From Candidatus Calditenuaceae archaeon HR02 (GTDB lineage Archaea > Thermoproteota > Nitrososphaeria_A > Caldarchaeales > Calditenuaceae): DNA of 53,692 nt. The notes beneath the pieces were generated by a model. That model saw only the letters and a list, made by a program, of their open reading frames with translations. It made no database searches and had not been told where the DNA came from. Below are positions 942 through 19,526 of the stretch, in pieces (position 1 is the first letter of the stretch; each line of letters begins with the position of its first letter). Location: NCBI GenBank assembly GCA_002898395.1, contig BEHE01000014.1, positions 1 to 53,692 on the forward strand, in the 5' to 3' direction. Both the position numbers and the translations under genes were made by a program.

Positions 942-981
942 TATGAGGCACGCATATCATGATGGGTATAGGTATTGCACA

Positions 982-1767: not shown

Positions 1768-1782
1768 CGCTCATCTCTGGCG

Positions 1783-2247: not shown

Positions 2248-2255
2248 TCTCGGGC

Positions 2256-2463: not shown

Positions 2464-2816
2464 CCTTGTCAACCCTCATCATTTTTAAACACTTCTTGCA
2501 ATCAAATCTCAGCCTTCTTTCCCATTTAGAGCACACGATTTTCCCTTTTTCAGCATCTCTCGCAGCACTCACCAACACTTAGATTATCTAATTTAGTCCC
2601 CCCTTCTAGTCTCCCTCCTCAGCATCTCGGACCGGACGAGAACCTTCGATGTGCGTGGGATAAAGTTGGTGTTTGTCCATGGAGTTCGCCCCACATGATC
2701 TGCTCTTCTACTCCCCTCACCCCGCTCATTCCGCTGAAGATGTCGTCCTCGCGTTACGCGCTGAGCTCTACACAATTTCAGGTCATGAAGTAGACGCGCT
2801 AAATTCATCAGTAGCT

Positions 2817-3491: not shown

Positions 3492-3593
3492 TTCGAAATG
3501 CTGAAAAATAAAGTATTCTTTTTCCCTACAACGAAACAATAGGTTGTCCTATGAAAAAAGGCTTATTATCCTGTTAATAACATATCACCTGCC

Positions 3594-4043
3594 ATGAGTG
3601 AAGTCAGGGAACAGGGGGAACCCGCAAAAAGAGGCCAGGAACTGGAGGAGCCGACAAGGAGGTACCGGGACGTTGCGGTCCTGCTTGCCGCGGCATCTGC
3701 CATGACCGGTTCGCCGTCGCTGATCGACCGGATGACGTACGCCCTAGGTCCTGAGCCGGCGATGAAGGCGGTGGCCGACGCGCTGCGCATAGTTCAGAGT
3801 GATCTCTCCTCCCAGAGGCCCGCGATTTCGCAGGGGGCGTCGGAGAAGGGGTATCCCGAGGTCCGGGTCAGGGACGAGGCTGGTAACACGTCGGTGGTCA
3901 TACCAGGCAGGCTCCCCGGGAGCGAGACCGTCCGGAACTTCCTCGAGGAGGTGAGCCGGGACGTCTCCATCGCCAGGAAGATTGGGACGTACGCCTCAAG
4001 CCTCCTCGTCGGTGCCCTCATCAAGGCGGAGGGGGGTGGATGA
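3594..4043 (+). CDS. csa5: Type I-A small subunit Csa5 (Cas11)
   Basis: 149 aa, LIDRMTYAL..E...KAVADALR motif, first gene before cas7. Confidence 0.8.
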   Translation: MSEVREQGEPAKRGQELEEPTRRYRDVAVLLAAASAMTGSPSLIDRMTYALGPEPAMKAVADALRIVQSDLSSQRPAISQGASEKGYPEVRVRDEAGNTSVVIPGRLPGSETVRNFLEEVSRDVSIARKIGTYASSLLVGALIKAEGGG

Positions 4044-4044
4044 G

Positions 4045-5058
4045 GTGTTCCTGAGCTGCTCCTTCAGGTTGCTGGTCAACGTCGAGTCGCTGAACTCGGT
4101 CGAGAGCGTCGGCAACGTCTCGAGACATAGGTCGGTCCCGATCGTCGTGCCCGTGAACAACAACTACTCGATCAAGTACGTCCCAGCGGTATCCGGAGAG
4201 AGCATCGCCCACGGGTATCAAGCCCTGCTGGCTGACGTCGCGCGCAGGGAGGGGCTCCCGGTGGGGGTCTACTCAGGCAGGAAGGAGTTCATCAAGTTCT
4301 CTGAGGACGACTACCTGAAGGACGAGGGGATAGAGCCGCCGAAGGACCACGACGACGCCAGGCGGTTCGAGGTTGACGTGTTGCTCAAGGATTTGGTCGC
4401 TGACGTCGGAGGCTTCCTGTACGCCGGTAAGATTCCCGTGAAGAGGACGTCGAGGTTCCAGGTCGGGTACATGTTGCCAGCGCTGGAGGACGTGACCGAT
4501 GCATCAGCCCTCGAAGCACAGTTCCACGTGAGGTTCCTGCAGTCGAAGCCCACCAAGTCCTCGGACCAGGAAGGGGCCAGGCTGGGGCAGATACCGTACA
4601 ACATTGAGGCCGCGTCGGCTCTCTACACGTTCACCCTCAACCTCGACATCGACGGCATAGGGGTACCGTCGACCGTCTACGGCAAGAGGGACTCGCGGAA
4701 GGAGATGGAGTTGGAGAAACAGCGTGCCGCGAGGGTGAGGGCCGCGCTGAAGGCCCTGGGCCTCTTCGTCTCACAGATATCCTTCGGGGCCAGGCACGCG
4801 AGGTACCTGCCTAACGCCGAGCTGATGTCGTGCGTCCTCGCGGTCTCCGACGTGCCCTTCACCGTCTCTGCCGGCAACTTCCGGGGCTACGTCGAGAGGA
4901 CCTTCGAAAGGGCCGAGAGGACGTCGAGGCTGCTCGGCGTCAGGACCAGAGTCTGGGCCGTCGTTAGGGAGGACGGCGTTAGGGTTCCGGAGGACGTGGT
5001 GCGGGTCAACTCACCCGAGGAGGTTATCGAGGAGCTGATCAGGCAGCTGGGGCAGTGA
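4045..5058 (+). CDS. cas7: Type I-A Cas7 (Csa2/DevR)
   Basis: NVESLNSVESVGNVSRHR, YVPAVSGESIAHGYQ, DVGGFLYAG..PVKRTSRF; GTG start at 4045 inferred. Confidence 0.95.
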   Translation: MFLSCSFRLLVNVESLNSVESVGNVSRHRSVPIVVPVNNNYSIKYVPAVSGESIAHGYQALLADVARREGLPVGVYSGRKEFIKFSEDDYLKDEGIEPPKDHDDARRFEVDVLLKDLVADVGGFLYAGKIPVKRTSRFQVGYMLPALEDVTDASALEAQFHVRFLQSKPTKSSDQEGARLGQIPYNIEAASALYTFTLNLDIDGIGVPSTVYGKRDSRKEMELEKQRAARVRAALKALGLFVSQISFGARHARYLPNAELMSCVLAVSDVPFTVSAGNFRGYVERTFERAERTSRLLGVRTRVWAVVREDGVRVPEDVVRVNSPEEVIEELIRQLGQ

Positions 5059-5071
5059 GGTAACCTAAGGG

Positions 5072-5911
5072 ATGTTCGGCGTGCTGATGAGGGTGAGGTT
5101 CGCGTGGGGCTTCTCGGTTAAGGCTCCGAAGGAGGCCAAAGCCCAGTCGGCCTACTCGGTCCCTCCTCCGACCACGCTGATCGGTGCCGTATCGAAGCAC
5201 CTGTCCTCGTCGAGCGGCCTGGGTGAGACGGTGGTCTACCAAGTTAGTAAGAAGGAGGTCATCGCCTCGGCCGCGTCGAGGTTCTCCTCAGTCTTCAGGG
5301 CGGCCTCGGCGTTCTACGATAACGAGAGGAGCGGCAGGTTCCCGCTTGGGAAGTACTGGGAGGACCAGATCCGCTACCAGGTGCTCCAGTTCCAGAAGCC
5401 GACCAGGAGGGGATTGCCTCAGTTCCGATTCAACCTGATACCAGCCGGCAAGGTCTACTTCCCCGGAGGGGAGATGGTGGTCGGCCTTCTCGGGTCGGAG
5501 GAGGAGGTGCGTAAAACGATCGGCGACCAGTGGGCCGTTAAGCTGAGGGACGCCTGCTACGCGGTCACCTCCATCGGATCGAAGGAGGGGATCGTCGAGG
5601 TCGAGGAGGTGGAGGTCATGGAATCCCTGAGCCCGATCAGCGGCGAGTTCGAGACGAGATTCTACCAGCGCATGGACCTGATCGAGGAGGTCCTCGAAAT
5701 CGATTACGGGTCGGCTCCATACGGATTGGCTGGGGCGTACGTGGAGCGTTTCTGGGAGATGGGGTACGGGTGGGGGGTTCAACAGAGGCCCGTCGAGTAC
5801 ATCGTCCCGGGGAGGAGGGACCCTGTGACCAGCTGCAGGATACGTGTCAGGCCCACGCGCAACGCGGCGGTCTACCTGGTGGGAAAGGATGGGATCGCCG
5901 TCCCTGCCTGA
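5072..5911 (+). CDS. cas5: Type I-A Cas5a
   Basis: N-terminal FAWGFSVK..KAQSAYSVPPPTTLIGA and IGSKEG motifs. Confidence 0.93.
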   Translation: MFGVLMRVRFAWGFSVKAPKEAKAQSAYSVPPPTTLIGAVSKHLSSSSGLGETVVYQVSKKEVIASAASRFSSVFRAASAFYDNERSGRFPLGKYWEDQIRYQVLQFQKPTRRGLPQFRFNLIPAGKVYFPGGEMVVGLLGSEEEVRKTIGDQWAVKLRDACYAVTSIGSKEGIVEVEEVEVMESLSPISGEFETRFYQRMDLIEEVLEIDYGSAPYGLAGAYVERFWEMGYGWGVQQRPVEYIVPGRRDPVTSCRIRVRPTRNAAVYLVGKDGIAVPA

Positions 5912-7535
5912 GGTTTACGAGCGCATCTCCGAGATCTTCAGCCCGCCTGGTCCCAGGCCGTTGCTCACGCAGGCCCTCGAGAGGCTCGACGAACACCTTC
6001 GCGAGGATGAGCGAGTCGCGGTGTTCCTTGAGGCCCCCACGGGCTACGGGAAGAGCACGCTCTCCTTGGCGCTGTACGCAGCGATCAAGCTGGGCCGCCA
6101 AGACCTCGGCCAGAGGGTCATACACGTGCTGCCGCTCCGGTCCATTGGGACCGATCTGAGGGATAAGTCGATCAATCGGATCTACACAGTGAAATCGTCA
6201 ATCGGAGGCCAGTTCTCCGTCCTCAGCGAGAAAGACGTCGGCCTCCAGCAGATGCACTCGCCGGGGAGCCCTATGCTCTGCAAGCGCTTCGTCATCACGA
6301 CCCTAGACACGTTCCTCACCTCCTTCTACAAGATGCCCGCGTCGGAGATCCACAAGCTCTTCGTCAGGGGGACGGCCCACTACGAGGTCCCCAGGGCCTG
6401 CATATACACCTCTGTCGTGGTATTAGACGAGTTCCACCTCTTCCTCAGCTCGAGGTCGCTCGTGGACGGCAAGAGTAAATCGCTCACCTCGGCCGTGGCG
6501 TGCATCCGCGCCCTCCTGGACGCTGGGGTCCCGGTCCTCGTGATGACCGCGACAATGCCCGAGGTCGTCAAGGGGGCTGTTATGGACCAGCTGGAGACCG
6601 CAGGGCTCGAGGACGCGGTCGTCGAGGTCAGACCACCTCCCGGAGACGCCGGCCCCGTCAAGCGCAGATTGAAGGTAGAGGCGACGAAAGAGGACCCAGT
6701 TAGCCTGCTGCAGCACATAGGTGGGGACAGTAGGGTGCTGATCTTGCTGAACACCGTGCGCGAAGCGGTCGAGCTGTACCACCGCCTGAAGGGGAAGGGG
6801 TACTCGCCGGTGCTGCTGCACTCCCGCATCGTGGAGCGCGACAGGGAAGAAAGGCTGATGCTGATACGCGAGGGGCGCGAACGCAAGGTCTTCGTCACGA
6901 CGCAGGTTGTAGAGGCGGGTGTTGATGTGAGCTTCGACGTGCTGATCACCGAGTCAGCTCCGCCGGACTCGCTCCTCCAGAGGGCCGGCCGCGTCGCGAG
7001 GTACGGCGGCGAGGGCGAGGTCTACGTTATGCCGGTCACCGAGGGTGGACGCGCGGTCTACGGAGATCAGCTCCCAGAGAGCTCGTTCGAATACGTCGCG
7101 AAGAAGGGAACCCTGGGCACTGAGATGCTCGGATTGATTGACGAGGCGTTCAGGGGCAGGAACCCGATTGACCTCTATCACTACAACATGCTCACGGATA
7201 TAGACAGGTACCCGTCGTGCTCTCACAAGTTCGCGATGAAGGTGTGGGATGTCCTGTGCGGCTTCGTCAGGGACGGCGAGCAGATAACCGCCATCCCCCG
7301 GCAATACCTCAACGGGACCGTGAACCTACAGGAGCAAACGTTCGCGATGGACGAGGACCTCTTCCTGAGGCTGGTCGAAAGGTCAGGGACTGTTGAGGTG
7401 CTGCTGGAGTCCCTCGAGAGGAGATCGGTGGGGTTCCAGAGGAGCCACGAGTGCCTGGCGAGGGACCTCATCACGAGCGGAATAGCCGCCGTGATAGTCG
7501 ACGGTTACGACGAGGAGGTCGGGTACGTGGGATGA
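5889..7535 (+). CDS. cas3: Cas3' helicase
   Basis: APTGYGKS, VLDEFH, MTAT, TQVVEAGVDVSFD, QRAGRVAR; start uncertain. Confidence 0.95.
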   Translation: MGSPSLPEVYERISEIFSPPGPRPLLTQALERLDEHLREDERVAVFLEAPTGYGKSTLSLALYAAIKLGRQDLGQRVIHVLPLRSIGTDLRDKSINRIYTVKSSIGGQFSVLSEKDVGLQQMHSPGSPMLCKRFVITTLDTFLTSFYKMPASEIHKLFVRGTAHYEVPRACIYTSVVVLDEFHLFLSSRSLVDGKSKSLTSAVACIRALLDAGVPVLVMTATMPEVVKGAVMDQLETAGLEDAVVEVRPPPGDAGPVKRRLKVEATKEDPVSLLQHIGGDSRVLILLNTVREAVELYHRLKGKGYSPVLLHSRIVERDREERLMLIREGRERKVFVTTQVVEAGVDVSFDVLITESAPPDSLLQRAGRVARYGGEGEVYVMPVTEGGRAVYGDQLPESSFEYVAKKGTLGTEMLGLIDEAFRGRNPIDLYHYNMLTDIDRYPSCSHKFAMKVWDVLCGFVRDGEQITAIPRQYLNGTVNLQEQTFAMDEDLFLRLVERSGTVEVLLESLERRSVGFQRSHECLARDLITSGIAAVIVDGYDEEVGYVG

Positions 7536-8305
7536 GGCCCTGCGCATTCACGGGACACCCGCTGGGAGAGCACCTGAGGGAGACCGCCGCGCTCGCCCAG
7601 TGCCTCGTGCGGGGAGGGTACGCGCTCACGGTCGTCCGGAGGCTAAGATCCCTGGGGCTGGGAGCGGAGCCGGAGCAGGTGGTGGAGCTCGCGGTGCTGG
7701 CATCGATCTTCCACGACACCGGCAAGGCCGCGGAGCACTACCAGAGGCAGTTCGAGGGCGACTGCACCTGCGCACAGGGCCGCGACCCGTCCTTCAAGTA
7801 CCACGAGCTGATCTCCGCCGTCCACCTGAGGAGGTACTTCGATCTGACCAGGGCGTACGACGATGGGCTCGCGTTGCTCGCGGAGATGGCCGTCCTGAAC
7901 CACATGCACGCTCTGCGGGACTACAGCGCCTTCAAGGAGGTGCTCGATCCTCAAAGATGGTTGCCCTATGACCTCAGGTCAATCCTCGAAGGCTCCTCCG
8001 TCAGGGAGGAGGACGTGGAGGCCCTCGTCTCCGAGGTGAGAGGCTTCGACGCGCTCGACGTGGAGGCCTTCAGGCGCGCCCTTCCGGAGAAGGTGAGGCT
8101 CAACGAAGAGGTCAGACCACTCCTCAACAGGATCTCCGAGGCCGAGAGCCGAAGACCCTTCACGAAGCTCTACGTCGCACTGCTGCTCCCAGTGGTGGTC
8201 GGCGACAACCTCGACGCCCGCAAGAAGAGGAGGGACGACAGCGATCACAAGGGAAGGAAGCTCTTCGCGGAGGAGCTGGAGAGACTCCTAGAGGTGACCT
8301 GCTGA
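7532..8305 (+). CDS. cas3'': Cas3'' HD nuclease
   Basis: LGEHL, FHDTGKA..YQ, HELISA, NHMH, GDNLDA; ATG overlaps the cas3' stop. Confidence 0.93.
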   Translation: MRPCAFTGHPLGEHLRETAALAQCLVRGGYALTVVRRLRSLGLGAEPEQVVELAVLASIFHDTGKAAEHYQRQFEGDCTCAQGRDPSFKYHELISAVHLRRYFDLTRAYDDGLALLAEMAVLNHMHALRDYSAFKEVLDPQRWLPYDLRSILEGSSVREEDVEALVSEVRGFDALDVEAFRRALPEKVRLNEEVRPLLNRISEAESRRPFTKLYVALLLPVVVGDNLDARKKRRDDSDHKGRKLFAEELERLLEVTC

Positions 8306-9432
8306 TGGCGGAGGTCAGAATCCCGCTTCCCCCGAGGTTCGCGACCGAGTGCCTGATGGGCCTGCTCTACCACATCGACCCGGCATACACTATAACGCTC
8401 TCGGCAGGCGAGGCGACAGTGGAGGGGCCGCACCCGAAGAGGGCGTTGAGGGACGTTCTGGAGCTCGCGGCCCAGGTCCTGGAGGAGAGGGCGCAGGCGG
8501 GCCTCCGGGTGGAGCTGGGGCTTAGCGGCAACGACAGGAAGTATCACGGCCAGATCTGGAAGGCCCTCTCGCTCCCGCCAGATGCGACTCCGGTCGAGAT
8601 GGTCAGGATCCTCGCGTCAAACCCGCTTGTCGATGCCGGAAAGGTGAAGCTACTCTCGGCGCTGAAGCCGGAGTACTACGAGTACAACAGGATTCCAGGG
8701 TACGCAGGCAGCGAGAACGTGAGGAAGGCTGGCGAGGAGTACCCGATCAACGTAGTCGCCATGTGCCTGACCGGTTATCTGCTCTGCAGGGTCGGTGCCG
8801 CAAGGCTCGAGAGGGGGATGACGGTGTCCGTCGTGCTGGCGCCAGTGCTGGCTGGTCGCGGCCTCGCGGTCGACCCGGATTACCGCCTCACCCTCTTCGC
8901 AACGCCTCTGAGGAGGTTGAGCACCTCGCTCCTCGGCAGGAAGGGGCTGCTCGCGGGTCTCTTCCCAGAGACCGCGCTGGCCCTGCTCCTCGCCAGCCGT
9001 ATGGGAAGTTCCCTCTTCAGGCTGTACGCCATCAAGGAGGCGAAGGGCCAGGAGCCCGCGACGGTCTTCGCCGCGATGCAGATGAACCTGGTGCCGTTGC
9101 GCGAGGCGATGGAGAGAATGGGCCTCACCGAGGACCGGTACGCCGAACTGGTGGAGCGGCTGGCCGAGAGGAGCATGAACGTCAACGTCCAGGGGGTGGA
9201 GAAGACGTTGGCAACTAGGTTCTCGTCGCTGCTGTACGAGGTCCTTTCCAGAACGAGGCCACCGGAGGAGTTCGTGAGCGTCGTCAATAGGGAGTACGTC
9301 TCACTCACCCTTCCCAGAAGCGCTTCTAGGCGAAGGTATGACGAGGATAGTCGGATGGAGAAAATGGTAGAGTCGGTGGTATACCTAGCGAACAGAATAT
9401 GGAAAGCGGTCATAAGGGGCGAGTTCTCATGA
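8305..9432 (+). CDS. cas8a: Type I-A large subunit Cas8a2-like (Csa4/Csx9)
   Basis: LSGND and LSALKPEYYEYNR motifs; position after cas3'' in a I-A operon. Confidence 0.75.
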   Translation: MAEVRIPLPPRFATECLMGLLYHIDPAYTITLSAGEATVEGPHPKRALRDVLELAAQVLEERAQAGLRVELGLSGNDRKYHGQIWKALSLPPDATPVEMVRILASNPLVDAGKVKLLSALKPEYYEYNRIPGYAGSENVRKAGEEYPINVVAMCLTGYLLCRVGAARLERGMTVSVVLAPVLAGRGLAVDPDYRLTLFATPLRRLSTSLLGRKGLLAGLFPETALALLLASRMGSSLFRLYAIKEAKGQEPATVFAAMQMNLVPLREAMERMGLTEDRYAELVERLAERSMNVNVQGVEKTLATRFSSLLYEVLSRTRPPEEFVSVVNREYVSLTLPRSASRRRYDEDSRMEKMVESVVYLANRIWKAVIRGEFS

Positions 9433-9586
9433 CTAGCCCCTACCGGTCAGGGCATCCCCGACTATCAAGTGCCCCTACGAGATTTCTGTCCCTCGCCATA
9501 AGAAACATCGATCACCCATACCCACTCAGACTCAGATACCTTGACGGGAAGAGAAGTGGACGCGACCTTGTAGGTGGGGTGGAAGA

Positions 9587-10483
9587 ATGATCTTTGAGCT
9601 ACAGGCTCGGATTCTCGTCGATAGGCCGGTCAGGTTCCAAAGCTTCTCGGGCTTCGCGGTGAGGGGCGTTTTCTATGAGCTCCTCAATAAAGTCGACGAA
9701 GAATACTCCGACAGGCTCCACAAGGGCAAGAGTCTAGCGCCATTTACAGTTAAGCCCCCCTCTCTAGACGTGTCCGGTGGGCGGTATGTTTTCAGGTACG
9801 TCAAACCCCCCTCCGAGGTCTGGCTTCGACTCTTAACCTTCGACAAGAGAGTGTTCACGGCATGGAGGAAGATCCTGATAGAGGGTATGCTCGAGAAGGT
9901 AAGTCTCGCGGAGCAAGAATTCACGGTCAGCGAGGTAAGGCTAGTCATCCATGATCCCATCACGATGCTAGCCGAGAACTCTGTTGAAGATGTTTCAGGG
10001 TTTAGGGTGGTTTTCGAGACACCCACATTCTTTAGGATGACTTCAAGAAATGCGGTCACATCACAGGGCCTGCATATCTCGAGGGGGGTGGTCAAGGCTC
10101 GTAAACAAGCCTACCGGTTTATTCCTCTCCCCCTCCCAAGCCTCATCTTCAGGAGCCTCACGCGGCTCTGGTCCACCTTCATAGAGCCTTCATTCGATTA
10201 CCGGGGGCTACTCGAGTGGGTCGACGCAGGGGGTGTAGTGGTCTCCGGATTCCCGGAGGGGATATACACCCAGAGACTCTACGAGCACCCGACACTCAAC
10301 AAGTGGGTGGTCGGATTTACTGGCAGCGTCTACTACTCCATTCCAGACGACCTTTACGATAAGAGGGTGGCTGGGAAGGTAATTGGGTTGCTACGATTCG
10401 GCGAGCTCACAAACGTGGGTGGGGGGCGAACCGCCGGCTTCGGCTCTATGAAGCTGATGCTGAACCAGCAGGTGAATGAATAG
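9587..10483 (+). CDS. cas6: Cas6 crRNA-processing endoribonuclease
   Basis: LH..K.LAPFTV, FETPTFF, GFTG, C-terminal G-loop NVGGGRTAGFG. Confidence 0.95.
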   Translation: MIFELQARILVDRPVRFQSFSGFAVRGVFYELLNKVDEEYSDRLHKGKSLAPFTVKPPSLDVSGGRYVFRYVKPPSEVWLRLLTFDKRVFTAWRKILIEGMLEKVSLAEQEFTVSEVRLVIHDPITMLAENSVEDVSGFRVVFETPTFFRMTSRNAVTSQGLHISRGVVKARKQAYRFIPLPLPSLIFRSLTRLWSTFIEPSFDYRGLLEWVDAGGVVVSGFPEGIYTQRLYEHPTLNKWVVGFTGSVYYSIPDDLYDKRVAGKVIGLLRFGELTNVGGGRTAGFGSMKLMLNQQVNE

Positions 10484-11424
10484 TGTTCTTTTTAAGGAGG
10501 GAAGAGTTCGAGCGGCGGCTCCGCGCCCTGCGGGACCAAGTCGATGCCGCCATGGTTAGCCCGGAACTAAGGGGGTGGAACAGCTCTAGGCCACCTGTGA
10601 AGCCTTTAGGACGCCATCTCCTATCAGTCAGCGAGCTAGCATCTAGGTACTGCCCGACGATGAGGGACGTCTATCTGCGCCGGATCGCTAGGATTTCCCC
10701 GCCACCTAGCTTCAAGATGTTTCGAGGCCTAGTATACCACTTCATCATCAATCAACTGACGACAAGGTCCAAGAGATACATATTCGAGAGAGGTAAGATT
10801 CCGGGGCCAGAGCTCTTTAAACTCCTCCTCATAGACGAGCCTGTAGCAGTCGAGTCAGCAGTTCGTGACGCCTCTACAAAAGTTCAAGTCGACGAGGACG
10901 AAGTACGTTCTCTAACACTTCTAGCCTCCAGGCTATACCGTTACTTGGCTCTTCAAGTTGCCTCTGGCGTAGATTTAACCCAAAGCAAATTTCCGCACGT
11001 GGATGTCGACTCACTTGTGAATGAGTCCATCCCTGCCGTCAGTGAGATGAAGGTGGACGGGTCGCTGGTTGGGCTTAGCAGAGAGCTTTCAGTTGACATA
11101 TATACGCCGTACAACACGGTGATTGACATAAAGACTGGTGATATTAGGTCGTTCCACAGGTATGTAGGTGCCGGCTACGCACTCGCCATCGAGTCGGATA
11201 AGGGAGTTGAGGTTGACTTCGGGGTCACGATATACATCTCAGTACAGCCGTCCGCCCCCGCACCTGAAGTGAAGGCGGACTACTACTTGATCGGCGATGA
11301 GCTGAGGCGTGAGTTCTTAGAGCTAAGGGACGAGGCACAACTACTCATCGAGAAGGGCAAAGATCCCGGCATGCCTGTCAAATGCCCAGAGTTCTGCCCA
11401 TACTACACTGTCTGCAACAGGTGA
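10483..11424 (+). CDS. csa1: Type I-A Csa1 (Cas4-like) protein
   Basis: ELRGW....PPVKP, YCPT.RDVYLRR, VDGSLVGLS, DIKTG, GYALAIES, CPEFCPYYTVC. Confidence 0.92.
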   Translation: MFFLRREEFERRLRALRDQVDAAMVSPELRGWNSSRPPVKPLGRHLLSVSELASRYCPTMRDVYLRRIARISPPPSFKMFRGLVYHFIINQLTTRSKRYIFERGKIPGPELFKLLLIDEPVAVESAVRDASTKVQVDEDEVRSLTLLASRLYRYLALQVASGVDLTQSKFPHVDVDSLVNESIPAVSEMKVDGSLVGLSRELSVDIYTPYNTVIDIKTGDIRSFHRYVGAGYALAIESDKGVEVDFGVTIYISVQPSAPAPEVKADYYLIGDELRREFLELRDEAQLLIEKGKDPGMPVKCPEFCPYYTVCNR

Positions 11425-11425
11425 C

Positions 11426-12439
11426 ATGAGGAAGCTCGTCATAGCCGAGCCTGGACTCTTCCTCGGCGTAAAGGAGGAGCGGATAGTAGTTAGGAGGAGT
11501 GGTGAAGTGGTTGCTGAAGTCCCGGCGGCTCAGATCAGTCACGTCTTTGTATCGACGAGGGGTGCCTCTCTGTCAAGTGCTGCTCTATCTCTTCTCCTGC
11601 GGCATGGAGCGCAGCTCGTGCTGCTGGATGGTAGGGGGAGGCCGCTGGGGAGGCTGCTTCCGCTGATGAGGCGGGGACTCAGGGCCGTAGAGGCGCAGAT
11701 AGAGGCTCTTAAGGATGAGAGGGGAGCAGCCCTTGCGAAGGCTTTTGCATCTTCGAAGGCCTTGAATCAGGCAGCTCTTCTCAGGTCTGCCGCACATAAC
11801 AGGGCAGAGTCTAACCCGCAGCTAGCCCGCATGCTGCTCGAGGCATCAGTCGAGATTAAGAGTTACGCAGGTTTGATACTCCAATTCGAAGGAAGGCTTG
11901 AGGAGATTAGGCCCGAGATCGTTCGGATGGAGGCTGCCGCCGCAGATATCTATTGGAAGCTAGTTGCGGAGCTTCTGGGCGGGTTAGTTGATTTTCCAGG
12001 TAGGAGGAAGCGGTTCGACGAGCCGAAAGACCCAGCCAATCTGCTCCTTAACTACGGCTACGGCATACTTTCATCGATCTGTTTCCTCGCACTGGAGCTC
12101 TCCTCCCTCGACCCTTACAGGGGATTCCTCCACGTCAACTCTCCGAGAAGGCCCGCACTAGTTATGGACTTAATGGAGGAGTTCAGGCAGACTGTAGTCG
12201 ACAGAGTTGTATTCAGGCTTCTCCGGGAGCTTGACCTAAGGGCGGTGGTAGGTGCTGATGGGCTCACTAGAGAGGCTAGGAAGGCCTTAGCACTGAAGAT
12301 TCTTGAGAGGGTGAAGGAGAGGACTACATTCCGTGGGCGGTCTCTACCCATAGAGGCGCACATTTACCTGCAGGCAAGGAGGATACGGGGGTTCCTCCTT
12401 GGGCACGAGCCCGAGTATAGGGGGTACGTCGAGAGGTGA
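11426..12439 (+). CDS. cas1: Cas1 integrase
   Basis: EAAAADIYW, DPANLLLNYGYGIL, DPYRGFLH, LVMDLMEEFRQTVVD. Confidence 0.97.
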   Translation: MRKLVIAEPGLFLGVKEERIVVRRSGEVVAEVPAAQISHVFVSTRGASLSSAALSLLLRHGAQLVLLDGRGRPLGRLLPLMRRGLRAVEAQIEALKDERGAALAKAFASSKALNQAALLRSAAHNRAESNPQLARMLLEASVEIKSYAGLILQFEGRLEEIRPEIVRMEAAAADIYWKLVAELLGGLVDFPGRRKRFDEPKDPANLLLNYGYGILSSICFLALELSSLDPYRGFLHVNSPRRPALVMDLMEEFRQTVVDRVVFRLLRELDLRAVVGADGLTREARKALALKILERVKERTTFRGRSLPIEAHIYLQARRIRGFLLGHEPEYRGYVER

Positions 12440-12714
12440 GGACCCTTGTGATCTACGACATATCCTCTGACAACATCAGGAACGAGGTCAGCGAGACCTG
12501 CAAGAACTTCGGGCTCTCGAGGATACAGAAGAGCGCATTCATGGGTATCTTGCCGCCTGGGAGGAGGAAGGAGCTTGCGGCGAGGCTTAGGAAGGTATTA
12601 GGAGAGAGCGAGGGGAATATCCAGATCTTCGTCATCTGCGATGCCGACTTGGCACTCCGCGAGGTTATTGGGAGGGAATACGTGGAGGGTGGCGAGGAGG
12701 TCGTGATTGTTTGA
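12436..12714 (+). CDS. cas2: Cas2
   Basis: LVIYDISSD..R..VSETCKNFGLSRIQKSAFMG. Confidence 0.97.
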   Translation: MRTLVIYDISSDNIRNEVSETCKNFGLSRIQKSAFMGILPPGRRKELAARLRKVLGESEGNIQIFVICDADLALREVIGREYVEGGEEVVIV

Positions 12715-13301
12715 GTGAGGATGATGGCGACCTCATACCCGTAGTGCTTGTGAAGCAGTATATCTTCTGTCCGAGGATTGTCTACTTCTCTGAAGTCCTC
12801 GGGCTAAAGGAGAGGGAGACAGAGTTGATGTATGAGGGGCGGGATATGCAGTGGGCGGAAGACCGCCGTGATCGGAGGAGGAAGAGGGTGCCTGGCACAG
12901 GACTTGAGGCCAGGGGGGCAAAGCACGGGGTGCTATACGTGTCGAGAAGGCTTGGCCTCGCCGGTGTGGTTGACCTAGTCGTAGATGAGGGGGGCGTAGC
13001 TGTTGTTGAGCGAAAGGCGGCCAAGCGGCCGAAGCGGGTGCATAGGAACCACCTCTATCAGTTGGCGGCGTACGCTCTGCTCGTCGAGGAGGCCACCGGT
13101 AAGCCAGTCATGCGCGCATACATCCACTACCTCAAGTCTGGCGACATTGTTGAAGTCACACTCACAGATGAGGCTAAGCGGCACGTGCTCTGGATAGTCA
13201 GGCAGATCAAGAGTATAATCTGGGAAGAGCGGCTCCCACCCTATTCTGAGAAACCGGCCTGCAAGAGCTGCGGCTACCGATGGATCTGTAGGCAGCTCTA
13301 A
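12711..13301 (+). CDS. cas4: Cas4
   Basis: KQYIFCPR, GVVDLV, VVERK, QLAAYALL, CKSCGYRWIC. Confidence 0.95.
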   Translation: MSEDDGDLIPVVLVKQYIFCPRIVYFSEVLGLKERETELMYEGRDMQWAEDRRDRRRKRVPGTGLEARGAKHGVLYVSRRLGLAGVVDLVVDEGGVAVVERKAAKRPKRVHRNHLYQLAAYALLVEEATGKPVMRAYIHYLKSGDIVEVTLTDEAKRHVLWIVRQIKSIIWEERLPPYSEKPACKSCGYRWICRQL

Positions 13302-13319
13302 CACATTAGACCAAAAAGT

Positions 13320-13446
13320 AAAACATAAATACAAGACCAATCGTCTACGCCTGCACTTTATATACCCCCTCGCAGAAACGACACCAGACGAATAAAAACA
13401 TACAAAAAACCTAAATTAACCAATAATACCAACAAATACGGCTCGG
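13320..13446 (+). promoter_or_regulatory. CRISPR leader of array 3 with TATA box TTTATATA (13357-13364)
   Basis: Colinear homolog of leaders 1/2; directly upstream of the first repeat. Confidence 0.85.
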
Positions 13447-13658
13447 GAATCTCGCAAAGAGAGTTGAAAGAATAATAGCTTATCCACAAACAATGACCCA
13501 TCGATTAGGGAATCTCGCAAAGAGAGTTGAAAGCTCTATTAGACAGTTACCGAGCGTGAATTGAATATAGGAATGAATCTCGCAAAGAGAGTTGAAAGCA
13601 TACGGCTCGAATGCGATGATGCTGCTCATGACTCTTGAATCCGAAGAGGAATTGAAAG
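13447..13658 (+). CRISPR. CRISPR array 3: 3 consensus repeats, 1 divergent terminal repeat, 3 spacers
   Basis: Repeats at 13447, 13510, 13575; terminal GAATCCGAAGAGGAATTGAAAG at 13637-13658. Confidence 0.95.
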
Positions 13659-14544
13659 TACCCCCCAACTGCATCATCACCACGAGGAATCCCCCGAGCC
13701 GACCGCCGGGTCGAGAACATTGAGAGAAAGCAGCTTCTCCCTGAACTCCCTTATCGCGCTCTCATCCCTACGCCTCTTCAACTCCTCCACATGCAGCTCC
13801 AAACCTTAGACAAACCTCAGCTCACTATTCCTCCGCTGCACGCTCTCCTCCAACCCAAGCCGAGCCGCTATCGCCCTCCTACACATGAAACCTATCTCGT
13901 TCACGGGCGTGTAGAAGGTGCCTCTATTACCACGCTCATGCTCTGGCAACATGTTTTCTAAAACTGTTTCCAGTAGAAGCGGGTCGTTGCTTACCTCAAC
14001 CTCTAGCGGATAAGTCTCGTAGACGGTGAAATTATATCCGTTGAAGAAGTTCCTCGCCTCGTAGAATATAGGATTCATCTTCGCGGCTAGTTTCTTCTCA
14101 ACCATGTCGGTAAGGTATTCTTCCCGTTCAAACAAGGAACCGTTCAGAAAGGATTCCCTCCTCACAGTTTTTCCTGTTTAAGCTATCGTAGAAGAGACGG
14201 TTTAGCTCGAGGTAATCCTTTATCTTGTTTATGAAGCTCCTGTCTCCCTTAAGCCAGCCCTTCCTCTGCAGAAAGTAGAGAAACATAAGCCGTCCAAGGA
14301 AAAGCTGAGCATACGCGGCAGCGTTATCGCCCAGAACACTCTCCACCGCGTCAACTATTCTCCCATATAGGCTTCTGTAGCCTTGGAAGAACTCTTCCTT
14401 AACCTTGTCGTACGGCAGCATCTCGCTATCGTATGCCTTTTTGAGGCTCTCGTGGTCGCCTCTGTATCTAAGACTCTCAATCACCTCTATATCCGTCCTG
14501 TAGAGCTCATCCTCGATATGGAGGGCCCTAGCCTCTCCACCCAC
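13659..14544 (-). pseudogene. Eco57I-like / type IIG restriction-modification adenine methyltransferase pseudogene
   Basis: YAQLFLGRLMFLYFLQRKGW, FLNGSLF, YNFTVYE, GTFYTP, LNVLDPAVGSG(G)FLV; frameshift near 14150, in-frame TAA at 13806-13808, frameshift in the G-run near 13693, truncated at the CRISPR repeat. Confidence 0.85.
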
Positions 14545-14706
14545 TCTTAGTTTTAGTGTCCCTCGAGGCGGAATAGGTTTGTTGACCTGGCTTTTTTCTT
14601 TTTAGGATAAGGATTGACCTCCGAGGTATGGTTGTTTGGTAAAGCCGTAGTTCATGGTCTAACGGCTGACCGTTGCTAAGAAGCGCGAAGTGTTCAACCG
14701 GTAGGG

Positions 14707-15435
14707 TTATTTTGGCGAGAAAAACTTTAACGCCATTTCTATTATTTGTCTTACGGTCGTGTTTCCGTCGAGGCTCACCGTGTAATGGGGTTTACCCTTC
14801 ATGATTATTGCTATCTTCCACTTACGGTAAAGTCCATAGGAGCGCGCGAAAAGGTACCACACCAGAATCCTTATTGCTACGGACACAGATAGCACCAAGT
14901 AGATCAATAACGCGTATTGAACTAGCTGGGGCTGTATGAGTATGTAGCCAGTGAACGCGTATAACAGTATTATGGCATTCCACATCAGGATGCTGACCGA
15001 CTCTTTGCCGGGAAAAACGTAGGGAGCGTATATCAGAACTCTATCGCCAATTTTTTGGGTAAAGAGAGGCCGGAACTTTAACCGGTTTATAAACGGTATC
15101 CGGCGTAGAATTCTGAAGCGTCTTAGAGGAACACCTTCAACCACACATTCCCTTATGTAGTTCTCGATTGTCCGCTGAGATACAGACGTCTCAGTGGATT
15201 TTCTAATCTCTTCCTGGTATTTAGCGTAATTGTTTCTCTTCAGAAGCCAGAGAAGTTCATTGAATTTTGAGGGCCTGCCCTTGCTTTTCCGTCTACCTGT
15301 ATAGGGGGTTGGATTTTTTGCGGACAATTTTGCCCCCTTTCGCCGCTGTGAGGCGTTTTTTCTACCATCAGAACTTATCAAGTCCCTTTTATCTTTTTTG
15401 CTGGAAATGATGGGTTTGGTGGTCGCAGCGTTCAT
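14707..15435 (-). CDS. Hypothetical membrane protein with basic N-terminus
   Basis: 242-aa ORF, K/R-rich N-terminal half and two hydrophobic helices; start uncertain. Confidence 0.55.
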   Translation of the reverse strand: MNAATTKPIISSKKDKRDLISSDGRKNASQRRKGAKLSAKNPTPYTGRRKSKGRPSKFNELLWLLKRNNYAKYQEEIRKSTETSVSQRTIENYIRECVVEGVPLRRFRILRRIPFINRLKFRPLFTQKIGDRVLIYAPYVFPGKESVSILMWNAIILLYAFTGYILIQPQLVQYALLIYLVLSVSVAIRILVWYLFARSYGLYRKWKIAIIMKGKPHYTVSLDGNTTVRQIIEMALKFFSPK

Positions 15436-16393
15436 GGCTGCTTACGTGTTTCTCGTAGCCTACACAATCTTAACGCATTTTGCCGGAAGACACAGGCGAT
15501 GTAAAGCTCTGGCTCTTCTGTTGGCGGTGGCCTCACCCTTTGCTTACTTGGCGACAAGTTATCCCGCTGACCCAGTGGTCGTAACTCTGCAGTCAACGCT
15601 GCAAACAGCTACTGTTCTTACCTTAATTCTAGCACCTCTAACAGCGTTGGCGGCTTTGCTGCAGAAGATGGCTGACGGACAGTTGGAACGATACGTTACA
15701 GAAGACATAGTTCCACTGAACGAAAACAACAACGAGTTAAAGCAGTGGAATGATTCAATATTGCAACGGTGTTACAGCCACGCCGCCCCAACCCAGCCCC
15801 CTATAGAGGGTTACACAAACCAATCAAGTCTGGAAGAAAACCCGCTAGGTTTAGCTCTGCAGTCTCTTCCACATACCCCTGAGGGCGCAGCTACATACAT
15901 AGCTAAAACCTCGTCTATGTTTAGAAAGTCTGGCCCAACCGGGTACAAAGACACGAGAGAGGACGTCGCTGCATATAGAGCCCAAGCTCAGCAGGATGCC
16001 AAGCCAGCAGCCAATAGAGGGATACCTGCAGCCAATAGAGGGATACCTGAGGGCCTTAGGGTCAAGAACCTGATAAACTCCGGCATATACGACCTGGAGC
16101 TAAGCAAGCAAATAATAGAAATCCTGCACAGCGACCAGAAACTCAGGGACCATCTAGACTTCATCAGGTGGAGTGATGTAAGAATCCTATACAGAATCAG
16201 GGACAAGGGTGTGAAGCTTGAGCTGACCCCTCGAACCCATAGAAGGCTGAAGGGCTTGAAGATGATAGAGGAGAGGGATGGGAAGATTTTCTTGACACCT
16301 AGGGGGAAGAAAGTCAAACTCGCCGCGATAGAGGCAACTCTGCGGCTGAGGGAACAGCTCCTCGGACAGAGGCACCACCATGACATTAATTAA
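15398..16393 (+). CDS. Hypothetical membrane-anchored protein with C-terminal wHTH-like domain
   Basis: Three N-terminal hydrophobic segments; C-terminal RLKGLKMIEERDGKIFLTPRGKKV wing pattern. Confidence 0.6.
   Translation: MLEMMGLVVAAFMAAYVFLVAYTILTHFAGRHRRCKALALLLAVASPFAYLATSYPADPVVVTLQSTLQTATVLTLILAPLTALAALLQKMADGQLERYVTEDIVPLNENNNELKQWNDSILQRCYSHAAPTQPPIEGYTNQSSLEENPLGLALQSLPHTPEGAATYIAKTSSMFRKSGPTGYKDTREDVAAYRAQAQQDAKPAANRGIPAANRGIPEGLRVKNLINSGIYDLELSKQIIEILHSDQKLRDHLDFIRWSDVRILYRIRDKGVKLELTPRTHRRLKGLKMIEERDGKIFLTPRGKKVKLAAIEATLRLREQLLGQRHHHDIN
16007..16048 (+). repeat. Perfect in-frame 21-bp tandem duplication (AANRGIP x2)
   Basis: GCAGCCAATAGAGGGATACCT at 16007-16027 and 16028-16048. 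Confidence 0.9.
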
Positions 16394-16592
16394 AGCGGTG
16401 ATGGTGGAATGTGAAGGCCATAAGTATTTAGTGGCTAAGGTTGGCTGTAGAGGGGCGGGGGCAAACGAGAAAGAAGACGCAGGACAACGATTGAGAAAAA
16501 CCAGCCCAGCCGACATAAAAACCACCCACCACTTTTTCCCCTTTCCAACAAGGGACCCGCCGAAAACCCTTTATCAACATGGGCGGGTGTAC

Positions 16593-16819
16593 GGTGGGGA
16601 GTCGAGCTGGGCAAGGTGGCCCCGTGCAGCCGTGGCTGCCTGTAGCATCCGCCTGGGCCACTCAGATGACCCCAGGGAGCCTGTGCATGGCCACGGACGT
16701 GTACAGGTTGTCTGGGCCCCGCCAAACCTCTCCGCTCCCATTCTCCGGGAACGTTCCGCTGATGCGGAGCCCCCCTCTGCCTTACATGGGGGGCCAAAGG
16801 TCCCCGGAGGTGATGGGAG
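16593..16819 (+). ncRNA. Candidate structured RNA / 5' leader upstream of the LAGLIDADG gene
   Basis: At least 8 nested helices found by eye, with G-U pairs favouring the + strand; BRE/TATA-like GAAAACCCTTTATCAA about 25 nt upstream; no known family recognised. Confidence 0.5.
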
Positions 16820-16823
16820 AAAA

Positions 16824-18107
16824 ATGGAGAAAGGTTTGGTGGGTGGCGAAGACGATGAGAAGGATGCGTTTTCGAGGCTGATGGCGATGCTGGAGAAAGA
16901 CCTTCAACAAGTCGAAGAAAGAGACGCCGAGCTAAGGGCTAGGCTACCGGCGCCGAAGAAGATTGGTAGGAAACGAGCCATCTATCCGCCGCCATACCTA
17001 GGGGCAGCCGCTATACTCTACGAGGCTGGCTACAGCTACAGAGAAGTATCCGAAGCAGTAAATAGACTGCTGGAGCCGAAGCATCGGATAAACGAAGAGA
17101 CGCTAAGGAACAGGCTAGTAGAGGCAGGGGTAAAGCTACGAAGCCAGGCCGAGGCCGTGCGTAGAGCAACGCTCAGAGGCCCTAGGCAGCCGCCCAGGGA
17201 CACGATACAGATGGCTATGGCCGCGGCATTAGCACAAGGAGACGCGGCAGTACGGGTGAAGGGCAAGACAATGGTTGAAATGATACTGAACACACCGTAC
17301 GAAGGTTTCGCAAGAACGGTTGCCAAACTCTTCGAAGGCCATGGAACAATATCCCTAGGAGCACGAAAATACACGGAGGACTACTACGAGTGGCAGCTAA
17401 TAATTAGATTCGATCTCAAAGACTGGCAATTCCTCATAGAGGCCAAAAACTCTATGAGGATACCGGACTTCATCACAACAGATGAAGAGCTACGGGCATA
17501 CCTAGCGATGATGCTGGCATGCGAGGGGTACATAACTTGGAAAGAAAACAACAAGGAGAGAACCAACAATACTACGACGACGTTCTTCGTATCTGTAATT
17601 ACCAACACAAATAAACGACTCATACACGACATCGAAGCAAGGCTTCGAGAGCGTGACTACACTGTTTCACGGATTATTGCAACAAGATCCGGAGAGGTTC
17701 ACATAGACCGTTACGGGCGTGTCTACGAAACACAACAAGACGGGCAACGTCTCCAGTTATATGTTAGGCAAGAAGTCAGAAGATTTCTGGAATGGCTAGG
17801 CAGAATACCGCATCCCACGAAGGAGGCGCAGAGACTAGTCACGTTGCGGCTCCTGCGAGAATATGCTGAACATCCAATAAGGTGGCGACAGATCGAAAAA
17901 CTTAGAGACAGATTACAGTTTGCTCATGAGAAAGCTGCTGAACTCGGAAGGCAACGCGCTAAACACTTCTTTGACTTCGTACAAGCCGAGCTCGAAAAAG
18001 GGAGACGAAGAGATACTAGACCATTGAAGGCCCAAACCGCCTCTCACCACATACAGTGTTACTGTAACAGAATAGAAGGTATGGAGATGGCGTTATGGGT
18101 CTTATGA
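16824..18107 (+). CDS. HTH + two-motif LAGLIDADG-like homing endonuclease/maturase
   Basis: HTH (LYEAGYSYREVSEAV...TLRNRL...GVKLRS), motif 1 AAALAQGDAAV, motif 2 YLAMMLACEGYI, ITNTNKRLI; ATG 16824 follows SD GGAGGTGA (16806-16813). Confidence 0.7.
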   Translation: MEKGLVGGEDDEKDAFSRLMAMLEKDLQQVEERDAELRARLPAPKKIGRKRAIYPPPYLGAAAILYEAGYSYREVSEAVNRLLEPKHRINEETLRNRLVEAGVKLRSQAEAVRRATLRGPRQPPRDTIQMAMAAALAQGDAAVRVKGKTMVEMILNTPYEGFARTVAKLFEGHGTISLGARKYTEDYYEWQLIIRFDLKDWQFLIEAKNSMRIPDFITTDEELRAYLAMMLACEGYITWKENNKERTNNTTTTFFVSVITNTNKRLIHDIEARLRERDYTVSRIIATRSGEVHIDRYGRVYETQQDGQRLQLYVRQEVRRFLEWLGRIPHPTKEAQRLVTLRLLREYAEHPIRWRQIEKLRDRLQFAHEKAAELGRQRAKHFFDFVQAELEKGRRRDTRPLKAQTASHHIQCYCNRIEGMEMALWVL

Positions 18108-18400
18108 AAGAATATGAGGCAGTTAGAGTGGATACAGGCCTACATGGGCAACTTATTTCCCAAATTGTTGTGGTTTGCAGGAATTTGAAAAAGTCTGGTG
18201 AGAGTTTGCTGAGGAACTATTTTAAGCTGGGTAGGCTTGTAGACACTTTACACAACGAAGGCTATTCATATAGAGAGATAGAGCGGGCTCTCAGGAACAA
18301 AGAGGCTAACGACTGGATACCGAGGCACACGACGCTATTCAGAGCGCACAAGTTCTACCTTGCTGTCTTACTGCATGAAAGTTCTAAGAGGAGCTGCTGA
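18095..18400 (+). CDS. Small HTH-like protein resembling a DUF1016/YhcG N-terminal domain (possibly truncated)
   Basis: LLRNYFKLGRLV...GYSYREIERAL...TLFRAHKFYLA; overlaps the LAGLIDADG stop. Confidence 0.45.
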   Translation: MGLMKEYEAVRVDTGLHGQLISQIVVVCRNLKKSGESLLRNYFKLGRLVDTLHNEGYSYREIERALRNKEANDWIPRHTTLFRAHKFYLAVLLHESSKRSC

Positions 18401-18722
18401 GGGTACCTTAGTAGCATGTCTCGAATGCGGCTTTCCAAACAATGTCTAGTTACAGATTGTAGAACACTATCCCACTGCAACACAAAACTGTGCGGCGTTA
18501 CGGCGTTAACCTAGAAACTCTTGTAAGATAACTTGGAGTATTGCATCCTTACAACTGATAAATTAAAGGTTGTGTCTAATAATCTGGCGGCGAGTATCGG
18601 AGATAGTTTACATAGATCGTGGGACAGGAATTCTGAGAAAGAGTATACTCGCAAGGCTGGATGATTGGTCGATATGCAGGTATACTCACACCATATTGTC
18701 TAAAAACCCAGCGCCGCAATAA

Positions 18723-19514
18723 GTGGTGGAACTGTATGTGGAGCGATCTACTTTTGATGACCGATTGTTCAGAATGCACTTTTCGGGAAAACCTTGGTCC
18801 GGTTCGTGCCCCTCACGTTTTAATACATCCTGTGAACAGATTGTCCTTTGGATGAAGTATAGTGTTCAGACAGGCCCACATGGCGCCTATATTCAGACTT
18901 ACGCTTCATTTCTCGAAAACGTTGTGGAGGGTTTCAGGGTTGGGAAGCCATCTCTTCTACTTGTAAAGGCGGTGAATGAGAAGGGAGTTGAACATCGTTA
19001 TTACTCCCACTATGGAGGGGGCACAGGTAAGCTGAACATCGCCGTCCCCACGTGGTTAGCAGGCAAAGGAGAGAAGATACAGGTTTTCTTCAAAGTGGTC
19101 AGGGACGCGGAATTCATACAATCAGTTCCAGAGATTGTGGTTGACGGTGGTGAGAACCAGCCCCCGCTGGTTATAGAGAAGCTTACATTAGACGAGGACG
19201 TTTTGAAGCTCATGGTCAAGCAGGGCCCGGTTTCCCGCCTGTTGGAGGCATGCAACCCAGTCATTGGGTTTGATCCAAGGGGTGTGGAGATAACGGAAGG
19301 TAGATACGCAGGAGCACCCTATGTCCAGTTCACGTTAGGCGACAAAACCCTACGAATATACCATAACCATGGAAAAACCAGGGTAGCGTTAGGAAGCGGC
19401 AGAAACTACTACACAGTAAAAAGCATGGAGATAACAGACACACACATCAAAACTGTCATACAGAAGAAGGAAGAAAAAGTTAGGAATGTCTCTTCCCAGA
19501 TTCCCTTGGACTGA
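18723..19514 (+). CDS. Hypothetical protein (beta-rich)
   Basis: 263-aa ORF; real start probably the internal MKYSVQ ATG near 18852. Confidence 0.6.
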   Translation: MVELYVERSTFDDRLFRMHFSGKPWSGSCPSRFNTSCEQIVLWMKYSVQTGPHGAYIQTYASFLENVVEGFRVGKPSLLLVKAVNEKGVEHRYYSHYGGGTGKLNIAVPTWLAGKGEKIQVFFKVVRDAEFIQSVPEIVVDGGENQPPLVIEKLTLDEDVLKLMVKQGPVSRLLEACNPVIGFDPRGVEITEGRYAGAPYVQFTLGDKTLRIYHNHGKTRVALGSGRNYYTVKSMEITDTHIKTVIQKKEEKVRNVSSQIPLD

Positions 19515-19526
19515 GAAAACGGGTGT

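Follow-up and report, generated by a model that had tools for sequence, protein, structure and literature searches.

Bulge-helix-bulge (BHB) motifs define the introns of archaeal ribosomal RNA (rRNA) and transfer RNA (tRNA) genes, many archaeal rRNA introns encode LAGLIDADG homing endonucleases, and the Aigarchaeota (Caldiarchaeum subterraneum) carry introns in their 16S rRNA (PMC4496867). A BHB intron has also been described in the cbf5 pre-mRNA of Crenarchaeota (PMC2738675). Here we report a locus of Candidatus Calditenuaceae archaeon HR02 in which a gene for a LAGLIDADG protein (gene B, 16824-18107) and the structured RNA in front of it are bracketed by a BHB motif. The analyzed window is the whole 53.7-kb contig BEHE01000014.1 of a 1.73-Mb archaeal genome (G000); coordinates refer to it, and all parts of the element lie on its + strand. 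Archaeal BHB introns that bear an open reading frame (ORF) have been described in rRNA genes, and their persistence there is accounted for by the host RNA.

The original prediction, made from the letters of the window, had proposed a structured RNA directly upstream of a LAGLIDADG gene as a candidate RNA-nuclease system. We give roughly an even chance to the reading that the locus is a LAGLIDADG-encoding, intron-like RNA that can be excised by an endonuclease, occupies a spacer within an accessory operon of three genes (A, B and C) in Caldarchaeales, and has a leader that lowers translation of the nuclease.

The bulge-helix-bulge motif and the LAGLIDADG protein

In the motif, an outer helix of 9 bp is joined to a central helix of 4 bp, and two bulges of 3 nt each lie on opposite strands. 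Its 5' half (16445-16473) contains the outer strand GAGGGGCGG (16450-16458), the central GGGC (16459-16462) and the bulge AAA (16463-16465), and its 3' half (18022-18050) contains the central GCCC (18030-18033), the bulge AAA (18034-18036) and the outer strand CCGCCTCTC (18037-18045). The 5' block lies ~130 nt upstream of the RNA of the original prediction, and its partner is formed by the last conserved codons of gene B. Cuts are predicted between 16464 and 16465 and between 18035 and 18036; they would release an intron-like segment of 1571 nt (16465-18035) that comprises the leader RNA together with the LAGLIDADG ORF as far as it is conserved.

The motif was found at homologous positions in all nine loci that hold both ends, which represent five clades, with a cut-to-cut distance of 1555-1604 nt. 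The central helix GGGC/GCCC is complete (4/4) in each of the nine, and the outer helix comprises 7-10 contiguous pairs; overall, pairing holds in 115 of 126 cells, and sliding the strands lowers this to 37-73. Compensatory changes occur at positions 7-9 of the outer helix, as seen from its strands in the window (GAGGGGCGG/CCGCCTCTC), in G024 (TAGGGGCGG/CCGCCCCTA) and in locus L012 (GGAGGGCGG/CCGCCCTCC), and G-U pairs are tolerated there, for example at position 6 in the window. Cofolding of the two halves returned the BHB pattern in eight of the nine loci. The 3' motif GCCCARACCGC, whose last C is Y in one locus, is present in seven further distinct loci in which the 5' side is missing or lost. 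By chance, the combination of 9 bp, 4 bp and bulge arose in 28 of 4000 random pairs of 60-nt stretches placed 1.56 kb apart. The original prediction had placed the gene outside any intron context, a view that the covarying BHB around leader and ORF does not support.

The HR02 genome encodes two paralogues of the splicing endonuclease (PF01974 matches over the cut-off). An intron-containing tRNA-Phe of this genome, when folded, displays the same strand order of outer helix, 4 bp and 3-nt bulge. ARAGORN, run both without introns and with introns of up to 2 kb, detected no tRNA host at the locus; across the genome, it reported introns in 14 of 45 tRNA genes, several of them at non-canonical positions. 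The possibility that the 3-nt bulges form a K-turn was dismissed on inspection, as the GA/AG pairs are missing, and no consistent 9-mers of complementarity between the leader and the gene end were found outside the BHB.

Gene B encodes an N-terminal helical region with a helix-turn-helix (HTH), followed by a two-domain LAGLIDADG nuclease-like part, and measures 427 aa from ATG 16824 or 575 aa from ATG 16380. Its Pfam LAGLIDADG_3 score is 17.3 bits, under the cut-off of 22.5. A search of 5.8 billion proteins identified 36 homologues, either unnamed or annotated as LAGLIDADG family homing endonuclease, originating from hot-spring metagenomes and metagenome-assembled genomes (MAGs) of Caldarchaeum; a precomputed PF14528 match accompanies nine of the 36 listed. 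Residues D140 and E234 are invariant in an alignment of 19 sequences and were assigned, by eye, to the acidic residues that end two LAGLIDADG-like helices.

In the AlphaFold2 model (mean predicted local distance difference test score, pLDDT, 82.7), residues 1-125 are helical and include the HTH-like stretch, and the remainder is predicted to form two alpha-beta-beta-alpha-beta-beta-alpha domains packed via the LAGLIDADG helices. The top Foldseek matches in the PDB were I-AniI (expect value, E, 2e-7), I-Tsp061I, the bI3 maturase and I-DmoI, with E up to ~5e-5 and target-normalised template modelling (TM) scores of 0.66 for I-Tsp061I and 0.64 for I-DmoI; the nearest folds are thus those of enzymes encoded by introns, of which I-Tsp061I and I-DmoI are archaeal. 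At E <= 0.001, 133 PDB chains match, and those listed are LAGLIDADG enzymes, their engineered variants and LAGLIDADG-containing inteins. A sequence profile compared with PDB sequences gave nine noise matches and no solved LAGLIDADG enzyme, so kinship to these enzymes is visible at the fold level only.

The conservation of the protein ends at ...RPLKAQ|TA, which coincides with the predicted 3' cut. Past AQ|TA, the C-terminal tails are unrelated in length and sequence, and the genomic stop codon of gene B falls in the predicted 3' exon.

Across the HR02 genome, 26 Pfam LAGLIDADG_3 matches were counted, 19 of them over the cut-off. Among the five best loci examined, on other contigs (L059-L064), four have a tRNA gene (Met, Thr, Ile, Asp) ~100-400 nt from the 3' end of the ORF. 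In one locus (L063, G000:C1 ~143170-143451), two complementary strands (9+4 bp, offset by 3 nt) stand on either side of another LAGLIDADG ORF: AGAGGAGGGGGAG lies ~100 nt upstream of the ORF and CTCCCCCTTCTCCTCT ~10 nt past it. This may be a second BHB-bounded unit or, because the searched regions were large, a chance pair.

The leader RNA and the readings of the locus

The region upstream of gene B stands out by composition, with a G+C content of 62-67% in 16500-16799 and of 41-59% in the flanking intervals on both sides. The + strand of 16585-16825 folds with -126.1 kcal/mol at 37 °C (z = -4.03), and none of 200 dinucleotide shuffles was as good; for the - strand, z was -2.83 and one of 200 shuffles did as well. 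Rfam 15 gave no family match at the gathering score over the whole window, and in 16350-16950 at E <= 10 it returned four weak matches, the best with 19.8 bits against a cut-off of 63.

Covariation was assessed in an alignment (A4) of 12 distinct sequences from six clades, and the scored pairs comprise the helices of the original prediction, two pseudoknots and one long-range helix. Of 936 cells, 87.1% are paired, compared with 38.8-46.1% when the partners are slid; both sides have changed in 24 of 81 pairs (slid controls 5-8), and the covariation score is 0.249 (slid 0.051-0.076). The original prediction of a structured, uncatalogued RNA is borne out by the shuffles, the covariation and the Rfam search, and the window contains every helix that it had named, each where it had placed it.

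Three parts make up the predicted fold of the leader, which is ~270 nt long: a hairpin, a three-way junction with a contact between two loops, and a second domain, in which the Shine-Dalgarno (SD) sequence and the first codons of gene B would be buried. The hairpin P0 (16555-16590) pairs an 'up' strand (ACCCGCC, 16555-16561) with a 'mid' strand (GGCGGGT, 16582-16588). It keeps 6-7 of its 7 pairs in all 12 sequences and shows two compensatory variants, a count in which L013 and L010 need a partner farther upstream and the partner in L020 is doubtful (3 Watson-Crick pairs). Alternatively, 'mid' (16581-16590) pairs with a 'down' strand (16645-16654); this helix is 92.5% paired, with two pairs altered on both sides. 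The two are mutually exclusive, and both covary. By our reading of the topology, mid:down cannot coexist with P2 either, as the strands would lack a linker.

Domain 1 (16593-16723) is the three-way junction, supported by both fold and covariation. Its closing helix P1 (16593-99/16717-23; GGTGGGG/CCCCGCC) is 98% paired, with one-sided changes only. P2 (16616-22/16655-61; GTGGCCC/GGGCCAC) contains a single compensatory change, U-A to C-G, and one position of P3 (16626-30/16635-39; GCAGC/GCUGC) shows three pair types. In the hairpin 16671-16716, made of P4 (16671-75/16712-16; CCCAG/CUGGG) and the 11-bp P5 (16678-88/16699-709), 12 of 16 pairs are altered on both sides. The loop-loop contact joins 16631-34 with 16692-95; the kissing loop suspected originally gains one compensatory change, CGUG/CACG to CAUG/CAUG in two of 12 sequences. 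The junction strands and the GGCCAYGGAC loop are near-invariant across the alignment. A pairing of an upstream GGCGGGG with the 3' strand of P1 was discarded by eye, the alignment showing no covariation.

Domain 2 (16724-16837) follows from covariation and from the predicted pairing of the leaders. A long-range helix (16724-28/16833-37) extends into codons 4-5 of gene B and covaries; like P0 and the mid:down pairing, it is an addition to the original prediction. Of the hairpins and stems proposed originally, P8 (16755-59/16764-68; TCCGC/GCGGA) and P9 (16769-75/16788-94; GCCCCCC/GGGGGGC) stand, as they covary, while P6 (16735-41/16813-19; CTCCCAT/ATGGGAG) does not hold beyond the clade of the window, being present in five of 12 sequences with zero covariation. 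The helix P7 (16743-49/16803-09) pairs an anti-SD strand with the SD. The feature 16806-16826 comprises the SD GGAGGTGA (16806-16813) and, at a spacing of 10 nt, ATG 16824; the SD is as perfect and as helical as had been claimed, and its GGAGG is predicted to be paired in every one of the 12 leaders (P 0.79-1.00). Nine of the 12 have an in-frame ATG behind the SD.

Upstream of P0, at 16531-16553, the alignment revealed a conserved CCACCCACC block followed by a T-rich tract (16541-16553), which could be a terminator-like or promoter-like element. The BRE/TATA-like promoter of the original prediction fared less well: its TTTATC (16571-16576) lies in the loop of P0 and is not kept in the other 11 sequences. 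Right behind the stop codon of gene A, an SD-like GAGGTGA (GCGGTGA in the window, 16395-16401) is found in all six clades in differing frames. A 'start-stop' mini-ORF after gene A was dropped as a candidate, since its reading frame is not that of the open stretch described below and the conserved GAGGTG is read in differing frames.

The RNA accompanies the gene, as the original prediction had anticipated. By BLASTN, it lies 5' of gene B in all loci that are long enough and whose protein is at least ~53% identical. A 271-nt query of the RNA found one copy in its own genome and, with 77-90% identity, copies in three of 40 relatives; further loci were gained by scanning genome and metagenome collections with the protein. 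The covariance model R1, built on domain 1, detected one copy each in four of the 76 genomes of the order, exactly those with a full-length gene B. The model had no match in L021, the homologue with 41% identity, nor in the decayed copies L029, L031 and L009 or the same-genus regions L033-L037. A pattern scan of genome contigs with the most conserved 27-nt consensus yielded four stretches, three on known Caldarchaeales-type contigs and a stray one from Kiloniellales (E 0.35 with R1), and the same pattern had no match in viral contigs. One 1.5-kb, partly N-masked contig (L007, CAYTDX010000190.1) carries an element 90% identical to that of the window, comprising the RNA and the N-terminus of the protein; it is filed under a bacterial Caldimicrobium MAG and is probably a mis-binned archaeal contig.

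In the favored reading, genes A, B and C would form one accessory operon in which a canonical archaeal BHB brackets 16465-18035. The tRNA-splicing endonuclease would cut this segment out of the A-C transcript, and the excised segment would probably be circularised, as with archaeal rRNA introns; splicing, cleavage and circularisation are all proposed from the BHB motif. Pairing in domain 2 would limit internal initiation of the nuclease. A second route is suggested by the open frame, which extends from the end of gene A across the 5' BHB strand: before splicing, ribosomes coupled to gene A may continue along the precursor and melt both leader and BHB, so that translation and excision would compete. 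The repression and the competition are likewise proposals. A bolder version is offered tentatively, with distinctly less confidence: the element would be a mobile BHB intron of an mRNA spacer, its 1.57-kb circle would serve as the nuclease mRNA, the leader would switch between read-through and excision, and the whole would belong to a wider, undescribed class of leader-plus-LAGLIDADG RNA elements in hot-spring archaea, located outside rRNA and tRNA genes.

Several observations weigh against excision or its proposed control. The inner helix of the BHB is weak, with 1-2 pairs followed by a loop; the folded tRNA-Phe of the same genome also lacks one. No intron-less allele was found in the 76 genomes, and the ligated exons contain no conserved ORF, so there is no host product whose function demands splicing. 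A 16-nt pattern of the ligated junction, allowing at most one mismatch, had six matches in the 76 genomes and five for the reversed control, the sole exact match lying inside an unrelated 541-aa ORF. Gene A was never seen without the element in these genomes. Among public sequencing runs, those listed with the sequence are two DNA runs, with small shares (0.10 and 0.08), and no RNA run. The SD-based control fails for some carriers, as the clade of L012, L014 and L018 has no in-frame ATG after the SD; the fold energies were calculated at 37 °C for a hot-spring dweller; and an intron alone does not explain the open frame upstream of gene B.

Some of these points, namely the missing intron-less allele and host product, would suit a plain 5' leader of a free-standing homing-endonuclease gene, acting as a translational operator, thermometer or riboswitch-like element, with the end-to-end helix as a 'panhandle' of the uncut mRNA. 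The paired SD in all 12 leaders agrees with it, as do the exclusive, covarying helices up:mid and mid:down, which look switch-like. We regard this explanation as a serious but doubtful one. A panhandle needs no invariant 4-bp helix with two 3-nt bulges in the geometry of a tRNA intron, and it leaves unexplained why conservation of the protein ends at the bulge.

The open frame itself (16380-16823) is in register with gene B, and its ATG 16380 overlaps the stop codon of gene A (16391-16393). In 10 of 12 sequences, this frame has no stop over ~435 nt upstream of gene B, compared with 0-5 stops (mostly 1-5) in the other two frames in each of the two parts examined, and nine of the 36 listed homologous proteins were called as genes of 553-582 aa that run through the RNA. 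One could conclude that the region encodes the N-terminal 148 residues of a translated 575-aa protein and that its fold is incidental to G+C richness, which we consider unlikely. Substitutions by codon position number 43/39/43 in the part upstream of the RNA (six close pairs summed) and 12/6/9 in the leader (the pair L015/L016), whereas gene B proper is strongly biased to third positions, with 16/16/58 in one example. Four sequences (the window, L002, L006 and L013) share one reading frame across the conserved nucleotides of domain 1, and the remaining eight use a different one. Locus L002 belongs to the complete genome G024, where the frame upstream has undergone a shift and runs into an in-frame stop. 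The peptide that P5 would encode is unrelated between clades, and the 24 compensatory base pairs are also at odds with a protein.

With no third-position excess, differing frames between clades and the stop in G024, the upstream stretch evolves as RNA, not as protein. As to homologues coding through the region, which the original prediction had counted against itself, the extended gene calls and the open frame are there, but the codon-position and frame tests speak for a non-protein stretch. Something keeps it stop-free, and read-through from the stop/start overlap at gene A is the simplest idea. For annotators, the consequence is that gene models of 553-582 aa in the gene B family cross a non-coding structured RNA.

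Less probable still is an RNA that acts in trans as a partner of the LAGLIDADG protein, as a maturase-like ribonucleoprotein or new ribozyme whose three-way junction is bound by the protein. The RNA is more conserved than the protein (90% versus 71% identity to G024), the junction strands and the GGCCAYGGAC loop barely vary, and the maturases I-AniI and bI3 are among the closest folds. Against such a partner, the locus has no separate promoter or terminator signal, the structure continues into the start codon, and models of known ribozymes or group I introns have no match; the group I core (Intron_gpI) was absent both at E <= 10 in 16350-16950 and at the gathering score in the window. The original prediction had also mentioned HEARO/omega RNAs, an identity that is unsupported because the nuclease has a LAGLIDADG fold where RuvC/HNH would be expected and Rfam gave no RF02033-type match; nothing at the locus suggests guiding.

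It is very hard to see the complementary blocks as DNA terminal inverted repeats of a transposon-like unit: they do bracket a 1.6-kb unit with a nuclease gene, and the element is patchily distributed, but G-U pairs are tolerated, the symmetric 3-nt offsets suit a BHB, target duplication and a second genomic copy are absent, and to our knowledge LAGLIDADG enzymes are not transposases.

Neighbouring genes, distribution and mobility

Gene A (15398-16393, +) encodes a 331-aa membrane-type protein with no Pfam or PADLOC assignment, and its stop codon overlaps the start of the open frame. Homologues lie directly 5' of the RNA in G024, G038, G027 and L012/L013. Gene C (18095-18400, +) encodes a 101-aa HTH-like protein, overlaps the end of gene B and comes first among the genes of the predicted 3' exon; its homologues directly follow gene B in G024, G027, L009 and L011. 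The order gene A-RNA-gene B-gene C is kept in G024, G038 and G027, and gene A, the RNA and full-length gene B all occur in the same four of 76 genomes. PADLOC, applied to five proteins of the module and one gene C homologue, reported no family. Gene C and the HTH region of gene B share a 15-residue stretch only (E 0.004).

In the window and in G024, the module has as its neighbour a radical-SAM (HMPTM-type) gene, whose 3' end faces it. A whole or partial homologue of this gene is found a few hundred bases to a few kb past gene B in G038, L008-L011, L014, L018 and L021. In four genomes of the same genus, synteny with the window ends exactly at the radical-SAM gene, and 1-19526 of the window has no DNA match in three same-genus genomes. 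Gene B is 71% identical to its homologue in G024, which belongs to another family, and 54% identical to that of G006, from the same genus; the radical-SAM gene shows 81% and 93%, respectively. Because the identities of gene B contradict those of the radical-SAM gene, horizontal movement is suggested, and the conflict points to a mobile element, for which it would be expected.

An explanation of the locus by an integrase and att site was considered and rejected, as no integrase was found in the insert of G021. In the same genome, the last 66 codons of the radical-SAM gene occur a second time (L048, G021:C1:792000-800000, at 3677-3970), 1.8 kb downstream of the intact gene and beside a truncated homologue of the 242-aa gene of the window. 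This duplication looks like a rearrangement scar at the place where other genomes carry the element.

The window also contains a type I-A CRISPR-Cas system (65-13600), with Csa3, Cas7/Csa2, Cas3 helicase, Cas3 HD, Cas6, Csa1, Cas1 and Cas4. Its arrays, built on a 24-25-nt repeat, lie at 65-941, at 981-1641 (inverted) and, with three repeats, at 13446-13598; a 27-nt, spacer-sized stretch is common to both large arrays (565-591 and 1381-1407). In G027, homologues of csa1-cas1-cas2-cas4 are located 3 kb downstream of the element. At 13669-14541, two adjacent minus-strand ORFs have no Pfam match; their DNA is 83% identical to a place in G024 far from the element and 68% identical to a second place in that genome; a fragmentary mobile or defence gene is a possible identity.

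Comparison with known systems

The closest described systems are the archaeal rRNA BHB introns of the I-DmoI, I-Tsp061I, I-PorI and I-ApeI type, which, like the element, combine a BHB at both ends with a two-domain LAGLIDADG ORF. The fold of gene B is near I-Tsp061I and I-DmoI, the HR02 genome encodes the splicing endonuclease, and the Aigarchaeota lineage carries rRNA introns (PMC4496867). In contrast to these introns, the element sits between the cistrons of an accessory operon that codes for proteins. It adds an N-terminal HTH region, a covarying leader of ~270 nt and a frame open into the 5' exon, and the search for an intron-less allele found none. Gene B also has no detectable sequence similarity to solved LAGLIDADG enzymes.

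Full-text searches of the literature, supplements excluded, found neither an account of the element nor one of any BHB intron that bears a LAGLIDADG gene and lies elsewhere than in rRNA or tRNA genes. If our reading is true, the range of places for such introns would be widened, and the element would supply a natural example of an mRNA that is probably circular and driven by an SD, as well as a test bed for the competition between translation and endonuclease processing in archaea. The leader, with its three-way junction, loop-loop contact and competing helices, would likewise offer a new and sizeable structured RNA family for structural work.

The cbf5 intron is reportedly short and ORF-less and interrupts a coding sequence; the element differs in being 1.57 kb long, bearing an ORF and lying between cistrons. 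What the two would share is a BHB-type intron in an mRNA, not in a stable RNA.

For the control of the nuclease, the nearest parallel is with phage T4 I-TevI and its relatives, homing-endonuclease genes that are controlled by sequestration of the ribosome-binding site. The likeness is that a helix buries both the SD and the start of a gene for a nuclease that could do harm. The leader described here is far larger, combines a three-way junction with a loop-loop contact and with alternative helices that covary, and belongs to an archaeal host.

For the frame that crosses the leader, mitochondrial LAGLIDADG maturases such as bI3 provide the comparison, as they are ORFs of group I introns fused in frame to the upstream exon. 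In both cases, a LAGLIDADG ORF is in frame with upstream sequence across a structured intron, or intron-like, RNA with no amino-acid constraint there. The element differs from the bI3 type by its BHB boundaries and by an upstream frame that starts ~85 nt before the predicted 5' cut.

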